The position numbers and the translations under genes are program-made. Below are positions 9,259 through 14,144 of a stretch of DNA of 64,000 bases, piece by piece. Location of the stretch: assembly GCA_963750165.1 (NCBI GenBank), contig CAVVPN010000012.1, forward strand, positions 416,001 to 480,000, given 5' to 3'. Positions within the stretch are counted from its first letter, which is position 1. The number at the start of each line of letters is the position of its first letter. Under the pieces are notes generated by a model that saw nothing but the letters and a program-made list of their open reading frames with translations, did not search any database and had not been told where the DNA came from. The DNA comes from an uncultured Gemmataceae bacterium (GTDB taxonomy: Bacteria > Planctomycetota > Planctomycetia > Gemmatales > Gemmataceae).

Positions 9259-10038
9259 ATGAGAGCCACCATGTTCGCGCACCGTCGTCGCTGGCACGCT
9301 GTCGGCGCTGGCCTGGTCCTTGGCGTCGCCGTCGGCGCCGTCACCCTCGCCTGCAATTCGCCGCCCAGCCAGGAGCAGGAGGCCAAACCCGTGCAGGGCC
9401 AGAAGAAACCGCCGCCCGCCGGCGACTACAAGCCGGTCGTCTTCGTCGATCTCGGCATCGTCCTGCAGACACCCAAGGAAGACAAAAAAACCGGCTTCGT
9501 CGTGGCCGGCCGCAACCCGACGTACCTGATCCGTGGCCTCAAGAAGATCAACGGCCAGTCCATCGCCACCCTGGAAAAGGACATGCGGCCGGATGCGCTG
9601 TCGAAGGCCGGTTTCCTCGGGAAGGACGAGGCGTTGCTGGACGTGCTGGCCCGCGACAACGATTACGTGGTCGAGCAACTGGGCATGTCGCACCAGGAGC
9701 TGGCCCGCCACCTGTACGCGCTGGAGGCGATCTGGCACAAGCTCGGCGGCAAGGCGACCGACAAGGAGCCGATCCGCTGCATCTACTGCAACCGTCGGTT
9801 CGAGATCACGCTGGATTTGACGCGCGGCCTTCAGAAGTCGCCGTTCCGGGACGACACCAGGACCAACGCCTACCTCAAGGCGGTAAACGTGGACAACGGT
9901 CAGAAACTGGAGTATTCGTGCCTGGTGCCGGCAATGGTCGAGCGCTACGGCTTCTACGAGGGCACGGGCACGTCCTTCCGCGTCGAGCCGAAACAGATCC
10001 TGGAAGTGTGCGATTTCCTGAAACCCGCGCCGAAGTAA
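9259..10038 (+). CDS. Hypothetical lipoprotein
   Basis: Signal peptide ending TLAC; start 9259 or 9271; K-rich codon-biased ORF. Confidence 0.75.
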   Translation: MRATMFAHRRRWHAVGAGLVLGVAVGAVTLACNSPPSQEQEAKPVQGQKKPPPAGDYKPVVFVDLGIVLQTPKEDKKTGFVVAGRNPTYLIRGLKKINGQSIATLEKDMRPDALSKAGFLGKDEALLDVLARDNDYVVEQLGMSHQELARHLYALEAIWHKLGGKATDKEPIRCIYCNRRFEITLDLTRGLQKSPFRDDTRTNAYLKAVNVDNGQKLEYSCLVPAMVERYGFYEGTGTSFRVEPKQILEVCDFLKPAPK

Positions 10039-10102: not shown

Positions 10103-10201
10103 GGAGGCGCCGAACAACAACTTCGTAGGACGGCTCTCCAGAGCCGTCGGGACGGCTCTGGAGAGCCGTCCTACTCTTGGAAGTTGTTGTTCGGCGCCTC
10201 C
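10103..10201. mobile_element. MITE-like element, 22-bp TIR, TCA target duplication, REP doublet cargo
   Basis: TCA-GGAGGCGCCGAACAACAACTTC...GAAGTTGTTGTTCGGCGCCTCC-TCA. Confidence 0.8.
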
Positions 10202-10945
10202 TCAGGTCAGGCGTGCCCGCGGCTTCGGTTTCTTGAAGTCGTCGCGGTTGCCGCTGTAGATCATGATGTAGAAATACGGGTTGTCCATGTCGTGGACGCT
10301 GATACTGAAGCGTCCGCTGCGCAAATTGCCCGCGAACTCCAGCGCGCTTTTCTTGTTGAACTGATTGACGGACAGCACATAGACGTGCGCCACCTGCGCC
10401 GATTCATTGGGCCGGTTGAAGGCGAACACCAGATACGGGACGGGTTGCCCCTGAAACAGGGCCAGGTGATACCCTTCCAGCAGCCGATAGTTCAGATCCT
10501 CGGGCGCCTTCATCTGGACCTTGAACTCCTCCTTGAAAGCTTCCTCCACCTGCTTGTCCGTTGTCGGGGCGCGGTTCGCCGCCTGGGCGACGGCCGGCAA
10601 ATCCACGTCCGGCACCCGCGGAGCCCACAGTACATAACCGAGCCCGAGCCCGATGGTCAGCAGCAATACGGCGGCGGCGGCGACCTTCCCCCAGCCGCGC
10701 CGCCAGGCCTCGCGCTCCGCGTCCAGGCGCACCAGCAGTCGCTCGCGCAGGCCGCTCGGCACCTTCACAGCCTGCATGGCACGGCTGAAGCGGTCGTCGG
10801 CGCGGCGCTCGTCGTGCGCCAGGGCGGCGCAGGCGGCGCAACCGTCGAGGTGCTGTTGCAACGCTTCCGCTTCGGCCGCGTCGGTCTCCGTGGGATTGCT
10901 GGGGCGGACAAAAGCCAGGAGCAGACGGGCGGTGTTACAATCCAT
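10202..10945 (-). CDS. Zinc-binding anti-sigma factor (zf-HC2)
   Basis: HLDGCAAC motif, single TM, extracytoplasmic C-terminus; overlaps the sigma gene end. Confidence 0.85.
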   Translation of the reverse strand: MDCNTARLLLAFVRPSNPTETDAAEAEALQQHLDGCAACAALAHDERRADDRFSRAMQAVKVPSGLRERLLVRLDAEREAWRRGWGKVAAAAVLLLTIGLGLGYVLWAPRVPDVDLPAVAQAANRAPTTDKQVEEAFKEEFKVQMKAPEDLNYRLLEGYHLALFQGQPVPYLVFAFNRPNESAQVAHVYVLSVNQFNKKSALEFAGNLRSGRFSISVHDMDNPYFYIMIYSGNRDDFKKPKPRARLT

Positions 10946-11480
10946 CGTTCGCCCTCCCGGTGCCCTCGGTGACCGCCGCGGAGGCCGCCGGCAGCAGGCG
11001 AGCCCGCAGGTGGACCTTGGCACGTGCGAGCCGCGACATCACCGTACCGATCGGCAAATCCATCTGCTCGGCGATGTCGCGGTATGAGAACTCCTCAAAA
11101 TAATACAATATGATCGGGGTCCGATACACCTCAGGTAACTCGTTCAGTGCCTGCTGCAGCTGGTCGGGATCGACCTCGGGCAGCGGTTCGGGTAAACGCT
11201 CGGGTATGTCGCCGACCAGGTCCAGCGACACCGCCGGCCGTTGCTTCTCGGCGCGCGTGCGGTGGAGGTAGCCATTGCGCAGGATGCTGAACAGCCAGGC
11301 CTTGGCCCGGGCGGGGTCGCGGAGCTGGCCCAGTTTGAGCTGGGCCTGGCAAAAAGCCTCCTGGGTCAGGTCCTCGGCATCCGCGGCCGAGCCCGACAGA
11401 CGGTAGGCGTAGCGGTACAGAGCCGCGTAGTGTTCCTCGACCAGCTTCTGCACAGAACGTCTGTTGCTGGGCACGTTCAT
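10935..11480 (-). CDS. ECF RNA polymerase sigma factor
   Basis: DAEDLTQEAF, AWLFSI, SYRDIAEQMDLPIGTVMSRLARA. Confidence 0.95.
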   Translation of the reverse strand: MNVPSNRRSVQKLVEEHYAALYRYAYRLSGSAADAEDLTQEAFCQAQLKLGQLRDPARAKAWLFSILRNGYLHRTRAEKQRPAVSLDLVGDIPERLPEPLPEVDPDQLQQALNELPEVYRTPIILYYFEEFSYRDIAEQMDLPIGTVMSRLARAKVHLRARLLPAASAAVTEGTGRANDGL

Positions 11481-11757
11481 GGGCCACCTTCTCCACCAAC
11501 GCACGAGCCCGCGCCGGGACGATTTATTCCCGAACGGGGAGAAATTTCAAAAAAAACCGCCGAGCCCCCTACCACTGCCGTGCGGCCTTCTTATAACGCA
11601 TGGGTAGACTACGCGAAGCCACGGTCCCTGGGCAACTCAATTCATCCCTCCGGGGCGGATTGCGCTGCCCGAACCTGGGAATCCACCACTGACACGCCGT
11701 GGCCACCCCCACCCGGGGGACGAACGGAAGCCCCAGGGCCGCGGGAATTTTTTTTCG

Positions 11758-11784
11758 GGAATAAAACACGCAGGTTGGTGTCAT
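11758..11784 (+). promoter_or_regulatory. Putative ECF-type promoter
   Basis: GGAAT-N17-GTCAT; similar GGGAT-N17-GTTTG at 12432-12458; TTCGGGAATAAA also on the minus strand at 11523-11534. Confidence 0.5.
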
Positions 11785-11866
11785 AGCCTACGAACTCGGC
11801 AGTCGGGGATACTGACCGAGGATGTTTCTCCCCATTTCGCACCTGTGTGGAAAGGACGGACAAACC

Positions 11867-12364
11867 GTGCAGAAGCTCCTGGGAATTCTGGTGATGGGCC
11901 TGGCCTTCACCCTGATGGCCGGCACCGTCGGCTGCCAAAAGGAGAAGGACAAGGAAAAGGACAAGAAGGAGACCGCCGCCGGCAAGGACAAGGACAAGGA
12001 CAAGGACAAGGAAAAGGACAAGGAAAAGGAAAAGGACAAGGAAAAGGACAAGGACAAGGGGAAGACCACCACGTACGAATTTGACACCATCAAGGAACAG
12101 AAGGTGGACAAGGCGACCGGCAAGAAGGGCACCCTGAAAGTGGCCGTGGAGTTGAAGGAAAAGGCCGCCCACAAACTGACCATCACCGCCACGAGCAAGG
12201 ACAAGGGCATCACCGGCACCGGTGAGATCACCAAGGGCGACAAGAAGGGCGATGTCATGCTTACCTTCGTGGATGTCGCTCAGGGCGATCACACCGTGGA
12301 TCTCGCTATCGGTGGCACGGACAGCACCGGCAAGGGCTCGTTCACTCTGAAGGTCGAAAAGTAA
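11867..12364 (+). CDS. Lipoprotein with KD/KE dipeptide repeat tract and C-terminal beta-rich domain (165 aa)
   Basis: GTG start after AAGGA; signal ending TVGC; KEKDKEKDKK..KDKDKDKDKEKDKEKEKDKEKDKDK. Confidence 0.85.
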   Translation: MQKLLGILVMGLAFTLMAGTVGCQKEKDKEKDKKETAAGKDKDKDKDKEKDKEKEKDKEKDKDKGKTTTYEFDTIKEQKVDKATGKKGTLKVAVELKEKAAHKLTITATSKDKGITGTGEITKGDKKGDVMLTFVDVAQGDHTVDLAIGGTDSTGKGSFTLKVEK

Positions 12365-12483
12365 CGCCTCCTCAACGTCAAGATTTGGTGACTCGACACG
12401 CACTTTTCTGTGAATGACGCCTGAATATGATGGGATATTCAGGATCAGCTAGTGTTTGAACCTCGCGAAAGGATGGTTTTCCT

Positions 12484-12633
12484 GTGAAGAAATTGCTCAC
12501 GCTTCTGGCCGCTGTGGCGTTGGTCTTCTCCTTGACCATCGCCAACGTCGGCTGCAACAAGGAAAAGGAAAAGGAAAAGGACAAGGCCGGCGAGAAGGAC
12601 AAGGACAAGGACAAGGACAAGGACAAGAAGTAA
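12484..12633 (+). CDS. 49-aa lipopeptide precursor, mature part almost pure KE/KD repeat (not in ORF track)
   Basis: MKKLLTLLAAVALVFSLTIANVG-CNKEKEKEKDKAGEKDKDKDKDKDKK; AAGGA RBS upstream, hairpin downstream. Confidence 0.8.
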   Translation: MKKLLTLLAAVALVFSLTIANVGCNKEKEKEKDKAGEKDKDKDKDKDKK

Positions 12634-12655
12634 TCCACGTCTGACGATCCAACAG

Positions 12656-12684
12656 GAGCCGGCCACCCCCGTGGCCGGCTCTTT
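12656..12684 (+). terminator. Intrinsic terminator-like hairpin
   Basis: GAGCCGGCCAC-CCCC-GTGGCCGGCTC-TTT. Confidence 0.65.
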
Positions 12685-12716
12685 GCACTTCGGTTGCCCA
12701 GGGCGAGGGAACGAAC

Positions 12717-12848
12717 GTGAAACACTTCCTGGCTTTTCTGCTACTGCTGGCGGTGACGGTGCCGCTGCTGCTCGGCTGCGGCGGCGACAAGGAAAACAAG
12801 AATAGTAACCGCGACCGCGACAAGCCGAAGCCCGCGAGCGGCTTCTGA
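12717..12848 (+). CDS. 43-aa lipopeptide precursor (not in ORF track)
   Basis: MKHFLAFLLLLAVTVPLLLG-CGGDKENKNSNRDRDKPKPASGF; GAGGGA RBS. Confidence 0.7.
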   Translation: MKHFLAFLLLLAVTVPLLLGCGGDKENKNSNRDRDKPKPASGF

Positions 12849-12869
12849 GCGACGGTGCCCGACGCTTCT

Positions 12870-12937
12870 GGCGAGCGGCGCGGCGTCAGGCCGCCGGTAC
12901 GGTGAAGCACCGGCGGGTTGACGCCGCGCCGCTCGCC
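12870..12937. repeat. REP-like palindrome
   Basis: GGCGAGCGGCGCGGCGTCA...TGACGCCGCGCCGCTCGCC. Confidence 0.8.
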
Positions 12938-13004
12938 CACCGCTGGCCTTGCCTCCCGCCCCGGCGGCTGCGATGATGACCAGGAAAAAAGGAGCCACCC
13001 CGCC

Positions 13005-14144
13005 ATGTCGCAGCCGCCGCTGGGCCGCAGCACACCGCTGGTGCCGCCGCTGTATCTGTCCTCCGTCTACACCCTGCCGGACCTCGACGCGCTCGACCGC
13101 ATCATCAACGCGGAGGAGCCCGGCTACGTCTACGCCCGCGACGCCCACCCCAACGCCCGCCACCTGGCGGCCGAGCTGGCAGCGCTGGAGGCCGCCGACT
13201 GGGCCGTCATCTGCGGTTCCGGCATGGCCGCCATCAGCGCGTTCCTGCTCGCCATTCTGCAACAGGGCGACCGCCTTGTCGCCGGCAACCGTCTGTACGG
13301 CCGCACTGCCCAGCTGTTCGACCCGGAGCTGACGCGCTTCGGCATCCGCACCACCTTCGTCGATGCCAACGACCTCGACGCCGTCAAGCGGGCCCTGGCG
13401 GAGCCGGCGAAGGTGCTGTTCGTTGAGACGCTGTCCAATCCGCTGCTACGCCTGGTGGACGTGCCGGCGCTGGCGCAGCTGGCGCGCGAGCGGCACTGCC
13501 TGCTCATGGTGGACAACACCTTCGCGACGCCGGTGCTGACCCGGCCGCTGACGCTGGGTGCCGACATCGTGATGGAGAGCCTGACGAAGATGATCGGCGG
13601 CCACTCCGACGTGACGCTGGGCGTGGTGGCCGGCAAGGGCGAGCTGCTGCCACAGGTCAGCGCGACGGTGAGTATCTGGGGGCTGGCGAGCAACCCGTTC
13701 GACTGCTGGCTGGCGCAGCGCGGCCTGGCGACGCTGCCGTTGCGGATGCGGGCGGCGTCGGCGAACGCGACGCGGTTGGCGGACTGGCTGGCGGACCAGG
13801 GCGGTGTGCAGCGCGTCGTCTACCCGGGCCGGCAGGACCACCCCGACCATGCGCTGGCGAAGACGCTGTTGCAGGGCGGCTGCGGCAACATGCTGAGCTT
13901 CGAGGTGCGCGGCGGTCGCGAGGGAGTGAATCGGTTCATGCGATTGGCGCCGGGGGTGCCGTTCAGCCCGTCGCTGGGCAACACGACAACGACGCTGAGC
14001 CATCCGGCGTCCACGTCGCACCGTTACGTCAGCCCAGCAGAGCGGCGGCGGCAGGGCATCACCGATGAGCTGATTCGGCTGTCCGTCGGTGTTGAGGAAT
14101 TCGAGCACATCCAGCGCGAGATGGCGAAGGGGCTGGCGGGGTAG
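13005..14144 (+). CDS. PLP-dependent trans-sulfuration enzyme (cystathionine gamma-synthase / methionine gamma-lyase family)
   Basis: YARDAHPN, SGMAAI, VDNTFATP, ESLTKMIGGHSD, LIRLSVGVE; AAGGAG RBS. Confidence 0.93.
   Translation: MSQPPLGRSTPLVPPLYLSSVYTLPDLDALDRIINAEEPGYVYARDAHPNARHLAAELAALEAADWAVICGSGMAAISAFLLAILQQGDRLVAGNRLYGRTAQLFDPELTRFGIRTTFVDANDLDAVKRALAEPAKVLFVETLSNPLLRLVDVPALAQLARERHCLLMVDNTFATPVLTRPLTLGADIVMESLTKMIGGHSDVTLGVVAGKGELLPQVSATVSIWGLASNPFDCWLAQRGLATLPLRMRAASANATRLADWLADQGGVQRVVYPGRQDHPDHALAKTLLQGGCGNMLSFEVRGGREGVNRFMRLAPGVPFSPSLGNTTTTLSHPASTSHRYVSPAERRRQGITDELIRLSVGVEEFEHIQREMAKGLAG

Follow-up and report, generated by a model that had tools for sequence, protein, structure and literature searches.

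A conserved cluster of small predicted lipoprotein genes beside an ECF sigma/anti-sigma pair in an uncultured Gemmataceae bacterium

Do three very short open reading frames (ORFs) for lipoprotein-like products, lying beside the genes of an extracytoplasmic function (ECF) sigma factor and its anti-sigma factor, form a regulated envelope system, or are they ordinary lipoprotein genes, or not genes at all? The locus lies in a stretch of 64,000 nucleotides (nt) from an uncultured Gemmataceae bacterium (contig CAVVPN010000012.1, positions 416,001 to 480,000; C12:416001-480000 of the host genome, G000, which measures 9.6 Mb with 66% G+C), referred to below as the window, in which all positions are counted unless stated otherwise. 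A previous sequence-only reading had described genes 1, 2 and 3 as co-oriented lipoprotein genes displaying alternating Lys-Asp/Lys-Glu (KD/KE) peptides, as a possible zwitterionic brush under ECF/anti-sigma control. Our analysis of the window and its relatives points to three small lipoprotein genes that form a conserved operon; its transcription is predicted to depend on the divergent, autoregulated ECF sigma factor, and it is likely to be the main envelope-stress output of that factor. We offer this tentatively, rating it at somewhat below an even chance.

All three ORFs lie on the plus strand, and each has a GTG start and a signal peptide leading to a lipobox Cys. Each GTG is preceded at 8–16 nt by a purine-rich stretch, GAAAGGA in genes 1 and 2 and GAGGGA in gene 3, as a candidate ribosome-binding site, and every element that had been proposed was found where it had been placed, the lipobox of gene 2 being atypical. 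With only 49 and 43 codons and GTG starts, genes 2 and 3 would suit an explanation in which they are untranslated, chance ORFs inside a transcribed spacer. Against this, orthologous clusters in many other genera keep the frame, the signal peptide and the lipobox; a lack of conservation of the frame and lipobox in relatives had been named beforehand as fatal to the proposal. When 41 relatives were searched with gene 1, two loci from other genera (L003 and L002) emerged that have the layout of the window, namely a sigma/anti-sigma pair and, divergently, gene 1-like, gene 2-like and gene 3-like lipoprotein ORFs. In the conserved 11-codon core of gene 3, the differences at codon positions 1, 2 and 3 number 349, 357 and 603 (91 pairs), and this third-position excess is the signature of a translated frame; a gene 3 profile, moreover, found 175 proteins at E ≤ 0.01 in a collection of 5.8 billion proteins, and matches in 126 of 151 genomes of the family. 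The chance-ORF explanation is already very unlikely, to the point that we give it almost no credence, and all three ORFs appear to be real, conserved lipoprotein genes.

The neighbouring sigma factor matches Sigma70_r2 (E = 4.4e-15) and Sigma70_r4_2 (E = 4.2e-19), both above the Pfam cut-offs, and scores 88.3 bits with TIGR02937 (sigma70-ECF; cut-off 42.9); having only the sigma2 and sigma4 domains, it is classed by its sequence as an ECF (group 4) factor. The anti-sigma protein, of class I by its features, is predicted to consist of a cytoplasmic HxxxCxxC domain, in which H32, C36 and C39 are invariant in 18 orthologues, a transmembrane (TM) helix at about residues 88–107 and a periplasmic alpha/beta domain (residues 108–247). 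Its Pfam matches to zf-HC2 (20.5 bits, cut-off 22.2) and DUF3379 (32.1 bits, cut-off 33.2) lie just below the cut-offs, and the NCBIfam ‘anti-sigma factor’ match (E = 3.5e-10) is likewise below its own. The AlphaFold (AF2) model, with a predicted local distance difference test (pLDDT) score of 84.8, has a single long TM helix, and the periplasmic domain (nt 10202-10621) is modelled as helix–helix, five-strand sheet and helix, with pLDDT >90 at about residues 140–200. Foldseek found no PDB match to this domain at E ≤ 1e-3, the weak best matches being SycH-like (E = 0.027) and YbjN-like chaperone folds. The coordinates of these and the other features are collected in Table 1.

Table 1. Features of the lipoprotein locus and the adjoining sigma/anti-sigma pair, in window coordinates.
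Feature	Position	Strand	Description
Anti-sigma gene	10202..10945	-	Likely start ATG 10945, 247 residues; overlaps sigma gene
ECF sigma gene	10935..11480	-	Likely start ATG 11480; start in ORF list GTG 11504
Predicted ECF-type promoter, sigma gene	11505..11531	-	GGGAATAA, 17 nt, TC
Predicted ECF-type promoter, lipoprotein operon	11757..11782	+	GGGAATAA, 16 nt, TC; starts 110 nt before gene 1 start
Gene 1	11867-12364	+	GTG start, 165 residues, Cys23; KE/KD tract, then predicted immunoglobulin (Ig)-like beta-sandwich
Gene 1, KE/KD polyampholyte linker	11936-12062
Gene 1, predicted Ig-like domain	residues about 70-165
Gene 2	12484-12633	+	GTG start, 49 residues; predicted mature form Cys plus 25-residue KE/KD tail
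Hairpin between genes 2 and 3	12654..12683	+	GC-rich, 12-bp stem, short U tail
Gene 3	12717-12848	+	GTG start, 43-residue micro-lipoprotein; predicted mature form a 23-residue lipopeptide
Hairpin 3′ of gene 3	12870..12937		Perfect, ~28 bp

The association of the cluster with the pair recurs well beyond the window. A sigma-anchored search of a species-level genome collection gave 43 loci, 38 of them planctomycete-labelled and with sigma orthologues of 47–76% identity; three of the 38 are cut by a contig end, which left 35 with enough upstream sequence to be searched with our own lipoprotein-ORF finder. One to four small lipoprotein ORFs are divergent from the sigma gene in 25 of these 35 evaluable loci. 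We also assembled a gene-3-anchored set of 20 loci, picked for long contigs and studied as 7-kb stretches: 16 of the stretches contain the sigma/anti-sigma pair, which in one more locus (G128) lies a little beyond the stretch, and the sigma gene is unlinked in the remaining three, being 374 kb away in G053, 3.56 Mb away in G061 and on another contig in G117. Gene 3 is promoter-distal in the 18 loci in which both kinds of lipoprotein ORF were resolved; of the other two, L073 has only gene 3, and the finder missed the gene 3 ORF of L074.

The cluster and the pair are further linked by a shared promoter-like motif. We searched for GGGAATA[AT]-N15-18-TC, that is GGGAATAA-N16/17-TC, in 27 sigma–lipoprotein intergenic regions (those of the 25 loci, the window and L003), which were chosen for holding a lipoprotein ORF, and found it in both orientations in all 27; the shuffle expectation per 27 regions is 0.2 for each orientation and 0.005 for both. 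The lipoprotein-ward copy lies at a median of 117 nt before the gene start, with a spacing of 16 nt in 23 regions and 17 nt in four, and the sigma-ward copy at a median of 50 nt before the sigma match. Among the nine loci without a lipoprotein ORF that were re-examined, the sigma-side motif is kept in all but L034, and the motif reads toward the cluster in 19 of the 20 gene-3-anchored loci, including the sigma-unlinked G053 and G061. In the window, the sigma-ward motif (11531-11505) overlaps the GTG at 11504, and the sigma gene therefore probably starts at the ATG at 11480. A simple sigma-70 promoter scan of 11300-13100 gave no sites. The motif has the same architecture as the promoters of S. 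meliloti RpoE1 and RpoE4, which were mapped by 5′-RACE and are described as GGGAATAA-N16-GTC (GGAATAA-N16-GTC), and an RpoE1 promoter so mapped also drives a ‘hypothetical signal peptide protein’ (PMC6180224). The comparative data lead us to infer that the sigma factor drives its own gene and acts directly on the lipoprotein operon, which is probably its principal target. The proposal of ECF/anti-sigma control thus stands in so far as a conserved, shared predicted motif links the cluster to the divergent pair; the zwitterionic chemistry that formed the other half of that proposal does not, as set out below.

Across the host genome the motif occurs at 23 sites, five of them in a repeated element, and most are unconvincing as regulon members. 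The most plausible site outside the locus is at C12:338723-339314, outside the window, where a third good motif copy, GGGAATAA-N16-TC, precedes by 79 nt the gene of a 170-residue lipoprotein that combines a short KD linker (QQGDKDKKDKEQ...) with a folded domain; the same sigma factor may control this gene too. The five identical copies (C3:1415978, C3:1402675, C4:1152716, C11:695064 and C12:651558) hold GGGAATAA upstream of an ORF of ~610 residues that has an ECF sigma-like start and a long C-terminal extension, and represent a multi-copy element or gene family. At C12:734149, also outside the window, a weaker motif that may be due to chance lies 213 nt before an ORF identified by eye, from its translation, as a Skp/OmpH-like periplasmic chaperone. 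In loci L045-L049, the sigma-side GGAATAAA motif is kept and a second motif, GGAATAT/GAAATAT, reads away from the sigma gene, but the finder recognised no lipoprotein ORF after it; these loci may have another target gene.

Two hairpins bear on the extent of the transcription unit. The one 3′ of gene 3 (-81.2 kcal/mol, z -5.9) was equalled by none of 200 shuffles and is likely to mark the end of the unit. The one between genes 2 and 3 (-36.6 kcal/mol, z -2.5; two of 200 shuffles fold equally well) may be a partial terminator or attenuator; it was not called by a simple terminator scan, which in 11300-13100 gave two sites, both on the minus strand within coding sequence and no more than the shuffle expectation. 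Rfam gave hairpin-type matches only, all sub-threshold.

With respect to maturation, each signal peptide has a Lys or Arg within the first seven residues, its lipobox Cys at position 23, 24 or 21 (genes 1–3, respectively), and no Asp, Glu, Arg or Lys in the 10 residues before that Cys. A PROSITE PS51257-style pattern is matched by gene 1 (TVGC) and gene 3 (LLGC). The three products have the sequence features expected of signal peptidase II substrates, gene 2 being atypical at -3, and the host encodes Lgt (PF01790, 182.5 bits) and LspA (PF01252, 90.1 bits), both above the cut-offs; for a cultured relative, proteomics has revealed Lnt and LolCDE (PMC8567305). Within the gene 1 family the leader (11867-11935 in the window) is, unusually, the best-conserved segment, with a mean pairwise identity of 61% in 14 members; the Ig-like domain reaches 35% and the linker 29%.

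The AF2 model of gene 1 has pLDDT <50 for residues 1–63 and ~90 for seven beta strands at residues 78–164, so that the C-terminal part of ~95 residues is predicted to be beta structure. The tract that the sequence-only reading had described beside a beta-rich domain is, in this model, a disordered linker to an Ig-like domain, with best PDB matches in Foldseek that are generic (Ig-like, PapD-like and CARDB, E about 1e-4). An exhaustive HMMER search of 1.84 billion representative proteins gave 30 matches at E ≤ 1e-3, five of them at E ≤ 1e-10, and a word-indexed search with the C-terminal domain gave 19 candidates, none at E ≤ 0.001. The relatives examined share a leader x-N/Q-K-L-L-G-L-L…G-T-V-G-C, a linker of 30–80 residues rich in Lys, Asp and Glu plus Ala or Thr, and the Ig-like domain. 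Gene 2 aligns to residues 2–53 of gene 1 with E = 8.9e-9 and 59% identity, and is a headless paralogue of it; such headless, tail-only lipoproteins recur at the gene 2 position in related loci. In Pfam and NCBIfam no family scored above cut-off for any of the three lipoproteins, except for a signal-peptide model on gene 2 (LP_plasma, a 24-position model from Mollicutes, 24.3 against a cut-off of 24), and low-complexity library matches (FAM176, EbpS and others) were discarded as compositional. The three predicted lipoproteins belong to no named family by these searches, which agrees with the suggestion that they are undescribed.

Gene 3 had been taken as one more short KD tail; instead it represents a sequence-specific family. 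Its predicted mature part, CGGDKENKNSNRDRDKPKPASGF, carries the family motif C-G-x-[KR]-[DE]-[KR]-G-x-N-x3-D-[RK]-P (short form K-x-x-N-x3-D-[RK]-P), and in the orthologue alignment G20, C21, N31 and P37 are invariant and D35 nearly so. The 120 homologues listed of the 175 found are 32–76 residues long, have no Pfam domain and are almost all named ‘hypothetical’. Within the family set counted above, the profile matches 77 of the 88 genomes of high quality and is represented in 82 of 90 genera; at E ≤ 1e-5 it matches 26 of 30 family genomes and none of 120 genomes drawn from the class outside the family (16 families), and gene 3 thus encodes a family-specific, near-universal micro-lipoprotein. 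It is essentially single-copy in the family. A peptidoglycan tether like Lpp (Braun's lipoprotein) was considered and rejected, because there is no coiled coil (the mature parts are predicted to be disordered), no conserved C-terminal Lys (the C-termini of gene 3 products vary among Phe, Glu, Pro, Arg, Lys and Ser) and no family match. The lipopeptide probably docks, through its motif, on a conserved protein partner.

Alternating zwitterionic chemistry had been put forward as the essence of the system, and this idea did not survive comparison with relatives. We collected 41 tail-type ORFs from 27 loci, one of which (in L035) is probably a false call. A charged fraction of at least 0.5 is found in only 14 of the 41 tails, S+T+P makes up at least 0.4 of the residues in 21, and the L003 orthologue has an Ala-rich, EAAAK-like linker. 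The net charge is zero or positive in all 41 and its absolute value per residue is at most 0.15 in 40; aromatic residues number five among 1681, and Lys accounts for 24% overall. The conserved trait is a hydrophilic, aromatic-poor, slightly cationic and presumably disordered chain, and the KD/KE alternation is not conserved.

In the host itself the alternation is nevertheless exceptional. The tracts of genes 1 and 2 are arrays of AAGGAC/AAGGAA hexamers encoding KD/KE, as had been proposed, and Tandem Repeats Finder called them as period-6 arrays at 11983-12059 (12.8 copies, 91% matches) and 12557-12627 (11.8 copies, 81% matches), respectively; the predicted mature gene 2 product is exactly the 26-residue peptide quoted by the sequence-only reading. 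Only five stop-to-stop frames in the genome hold at least four alternating K[DE] pairs, genes 1 and 2 being the two longest, and all five directly follow an N-terminal hydrophobic segment. When 1069 lipoprotein-like ORFs of the genome with a mature part of at least 15 residues were ranked by K+D+E content of the first 25 mature residues, gene 2 came first (0.88) and gene 1 second (0.80), against a median of 0.08 and a 99th percentile of 0.40. The tracts are more than chance, and they are no genome-wide habit. Eight of their 11 Glu codons are GAA, whereas three ordinary ORFs in the window use this codon for 23 of 69, which fits descent, perhaps recent, from an AAGGAC unit through C-to-A change. 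Outside the window, at G000:C12:728924-729172, another small lipoprotein has a mature part of 58 residues made of GDKMEKK/GDKMxGK repeats, a low-complexity tail rich in Met, Lys and Asp.

On the explanation that we tentatively prefer, the membrane anti-sigma factor would release the sigma factor, which would then raise its own synthesis and induce the operon, and the lipidated products would flood a membrane face with hydrophilic, non-sticky, slightly cationic chains. The tails would act as a hydrated spacer or brush, alternating EK peptides being described as strongly hydrated (PMC9491220, PMC11040334) and disordered linkers as frequent among outer-membrane lipoproteins (bioRxiv 10.1101/2021.01.05.425367), and the gene 1 chain would serve in addition as a long tether for the Ig-like head. 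The hexamer arrays would provide a mutational route by which tail length and composition drift, with selection acting on the composition of the tail and not on its sequence. A number of observations weigh against this account. The tail chemistry runs from polyampholyte to S/T/P-rich, so the specific zwitterionic property cannot be the selected trait, and a brush is just one of the functions compatible with a hydrophilic, disordered chain. Ten of the 35 evaluable loci have no adjacent cluster (L017, L018, L023, L029, L034 and L045-L049), the last five being the Schlesneria-labelled ones. Gene 3 may not be co-transcribed with genes 1 and 2, given the hairpin between genes 2 and 3. The lipobox of gene 2, NVGC, has Asn at -3 and fails the strict pattern, the orthologues having Ser, Thr, Ala or Leu there. 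Lastly, the brush model leaves the conservation of the gene 1 family signal peptide unexplained.

The main rival to this brush or output explanation is that the lipoproteins, and above all gene 3, belong to the signalling device itself and are not its output; the gene 3 lipopeptide would bind the anti-sigma periplasmic domain and set its activity in a CseA-like feedback. A conserved, sequence-specific motif suits protein–protein contact, and gene 3 is nearly universal and essentially single-copy in the family and near the sigma/anti-sigma pair in 17 of the 20 gene-3-anchored loci; the periplasmic domain, for its part, is conserved and confidently folded, has no solved relative, and finds its weak best matches among peptide-binding, chaperone-like folds (SycH). 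There is a precedent in that loss of CseA raises sigE promoter activity (PMC6767563). However, the Gemmatales-labelled loci L038, L041 and L044 have a similar anti-sigma domain and no gene 3 motif by our own ORF finder, the operon can sit megabases away from the sigma pair, and the variable, low-complexity products of genes 1 and 2 would make poor ligands; we consider feedback unlikely. It may also be asked whether there is a system here at all, since disordered N-terminal linkers are common, being reported for about half of E. coli outer-membrane lipoproteins (bioRxiv 10.1101/2021.01.05.425367), and the genes could then encode ordinary envelope lipoproteins with generic disordered tethers inflated by replication slippage, their ECF position reflecting mere regulon membership. 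The conservation of tail composition without that of tail sequence, the generic nature of the Ig-like domain and the presence of short KD stretches after the signal peptides of three other proteins of the genome would all be in keeping with this. Yet gene 2-type proteins are tethers with nothing to tether that many genera nevertheless retain at the same position, genes 1 and 2 stand far apart from the other lipoprotein-like ORFs of their genome, and the promoter motif, the gene order with gene 3 promoter-distal and the gene 3 motif are conserved family-wide, all of which makes an absence of any system rather improbable.

The conservation of the leader fits neither the brush model nor the gene 3 ligand model, and it raises the question of whether the signal peptides are themselves functional parts, the leader cut off by signal peptidase II either occupying, as substrate or competitor, the site-2 protease by which the anti-sigma factor is also degraded, or giving rise to a released peptide. 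The hydrophilic tails would then do no more than turn the precursor into a carrier that is cheap and can be exported. About half the length of genes 2 and 3 is signal peptide. The RseP homologue Eep releases enterococcal pheromones from the signal peptides of lipoproteins, and E. coli RseP cleaves remnant signal peptides. The locus holds no protease gene, however, and the signal peptides of gene 3 are not well conserved while its mature motif is; part of the 61% identity in the gene 1 family, moreover, may be due to the limited set of hydrophobic residues available and to the 14 sequences being closely related. Such a role has in our judgement only a slight chance of being real. The period-6 arrays, for their part, could make genes 1 and 2 contingency loci in which in-frame slippage within populations tunes surface shielding. 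Their degree of matching, the GAA-rich Glu codons, which fit recent descent of the tracts, and the difference in repeat unit and length between every pair of relatives seen are what such loci would be expected to show, and the Vsa shield of Mycoplasma depends on repeat number (PMC6080569). The closest gene 1 relative is only 53% identical, though, differences between genera are drift and not switching, and arrays as short and interrupted as these may have low slippage rates, so that we allow switching a small chance, if a somewhat better one than is due to functional leaders. A closed lipopeptide surveillance loop, in which an ECF-driven anti-fouling, hydrating brush of headless polyampholyte or mucin-like chains that remodels the membrane surface, gene 3 as dedicated anti-sigma ligand and signal peptides feeding the same proteolytic cascade would act together, would accommodate several of these elements, and we regard it as decidedly doubtful.

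Compared with known systems, the regulatory half of the locus is familiar. It resembles S. meliloti RpoE1/RpoE4 in having a group-4 sigma factor, a co-transcribed membrane anti-sigma factor and the same -35/-10 architecture before the sigma operon and a few neighbouring targets (PMC6180224), and differs in belonging to another phylum, in the DUF3379-like periplasmic domain of its anti-sigma factor, in its tiny-lipoprotein target, and in that promoter use is predicted here and was mapped there. The tails recall the Vsa/Vlp proteins of Mycoplasma, which are lipid-anchored, exposed, tandem-repeat hydrophilic chains thought to act sterically as a repeat-length-dependent shield (PMC6080569). Unlike those, they occur in a diderm planctomycete and are predicted to be expressed under a stress sigma factor rather than stochastically; the only NCBIfam matches to Mollicutes lipoprotein models were signal-peptide matches, far below cut-off except for LP_plasma, and no DNA-inversion or phase-variation machinery of the Vsa/Vlp type was seen. 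The predicted disordered stretch of gene 1 right after the presumed lipidated Cys is like the linkers of Gram-negative outer-membrane lipoproteins (bioRxiv 10.1101/2021.01.05.425367), from which the present family departs in its extreme composition, in gene 2, where the stretch is the whole mature protein, and in its predicted regulated operon. The Lys/acidic alternation of genes 1 and 2 is that of synthetic zwitterionic EK/DK peptides, and similar hydration and lack of adhesion would be expected (PMC9491220, PMC11040334), although the natural tails carry net charges of +5 and +2, are interrupted, and are replaced by other hydrophilic compositions in most orthologues. CseA of the Streptomyces sigE-cseABC system is likewise a lipoprotein encoded with an ECF sigma factor and possibly influences signalling from the outer face of the membrane; it differs in lying in the sigE operon, in working through a two-component system without an anti-sigma factor and in not being a micro-lipoprotein (PMC6767563). 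Homology of the lipoproteins to Vsa/Vlp, CseA or Lpp was not detected in Pfam or NCBIfam.

A literature search found no prior description of these lipoproteins. The available text of the T. immobilis proteome paper (PMC8567305) makes no mention of such proteins, and the terms ‘lipoprotein’, ‘GGAAT’ and ‘DUF3379’ are absent from the main text of PMC7826278, the supplements of which may classify the sigma factor. What appears to be new is an envelope operon, predicted to be ECF-controlled, of unnamed product families, one of them a family-wide micro-lipoprotein; the ECF sigma/anti-sigma pair is of a known kind. The analysis defines a near-universal micro-lipoprotein of the family, with about 20 mature residues, together with tail-only lipoproteins, all of which have been annotated as hypothetical or missed, and, by way of a predicted promoter, connects both with one particular ECF sigma factor. 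Little is understood of the unusual envelopes of planctomycetes, and hardly any regulons have been assigned to their many ECF sigma factors, for one of which the locus supplies a concrete candidate output; if the output explanation is true, that envelope-stress output would be an undescribed one. Should the tails indeed form a hydrated spacer or brush, they would parallel in nature the EK peptides engineered against fouling, and would exemplify selection on the composition, and not the sequence, of lipid-anchored disordered chains.

On the far side of the pair, the plus-strand ORF at 9259-10038 encodes a predicted lipoprotein of 255–259 residues with no Pfam or NCBIfam family, which converges on the anti-sigma gene. 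Between the two lies a further hairpin (10112-10192), with sub-threshold hairpin-type matches in Rfam.

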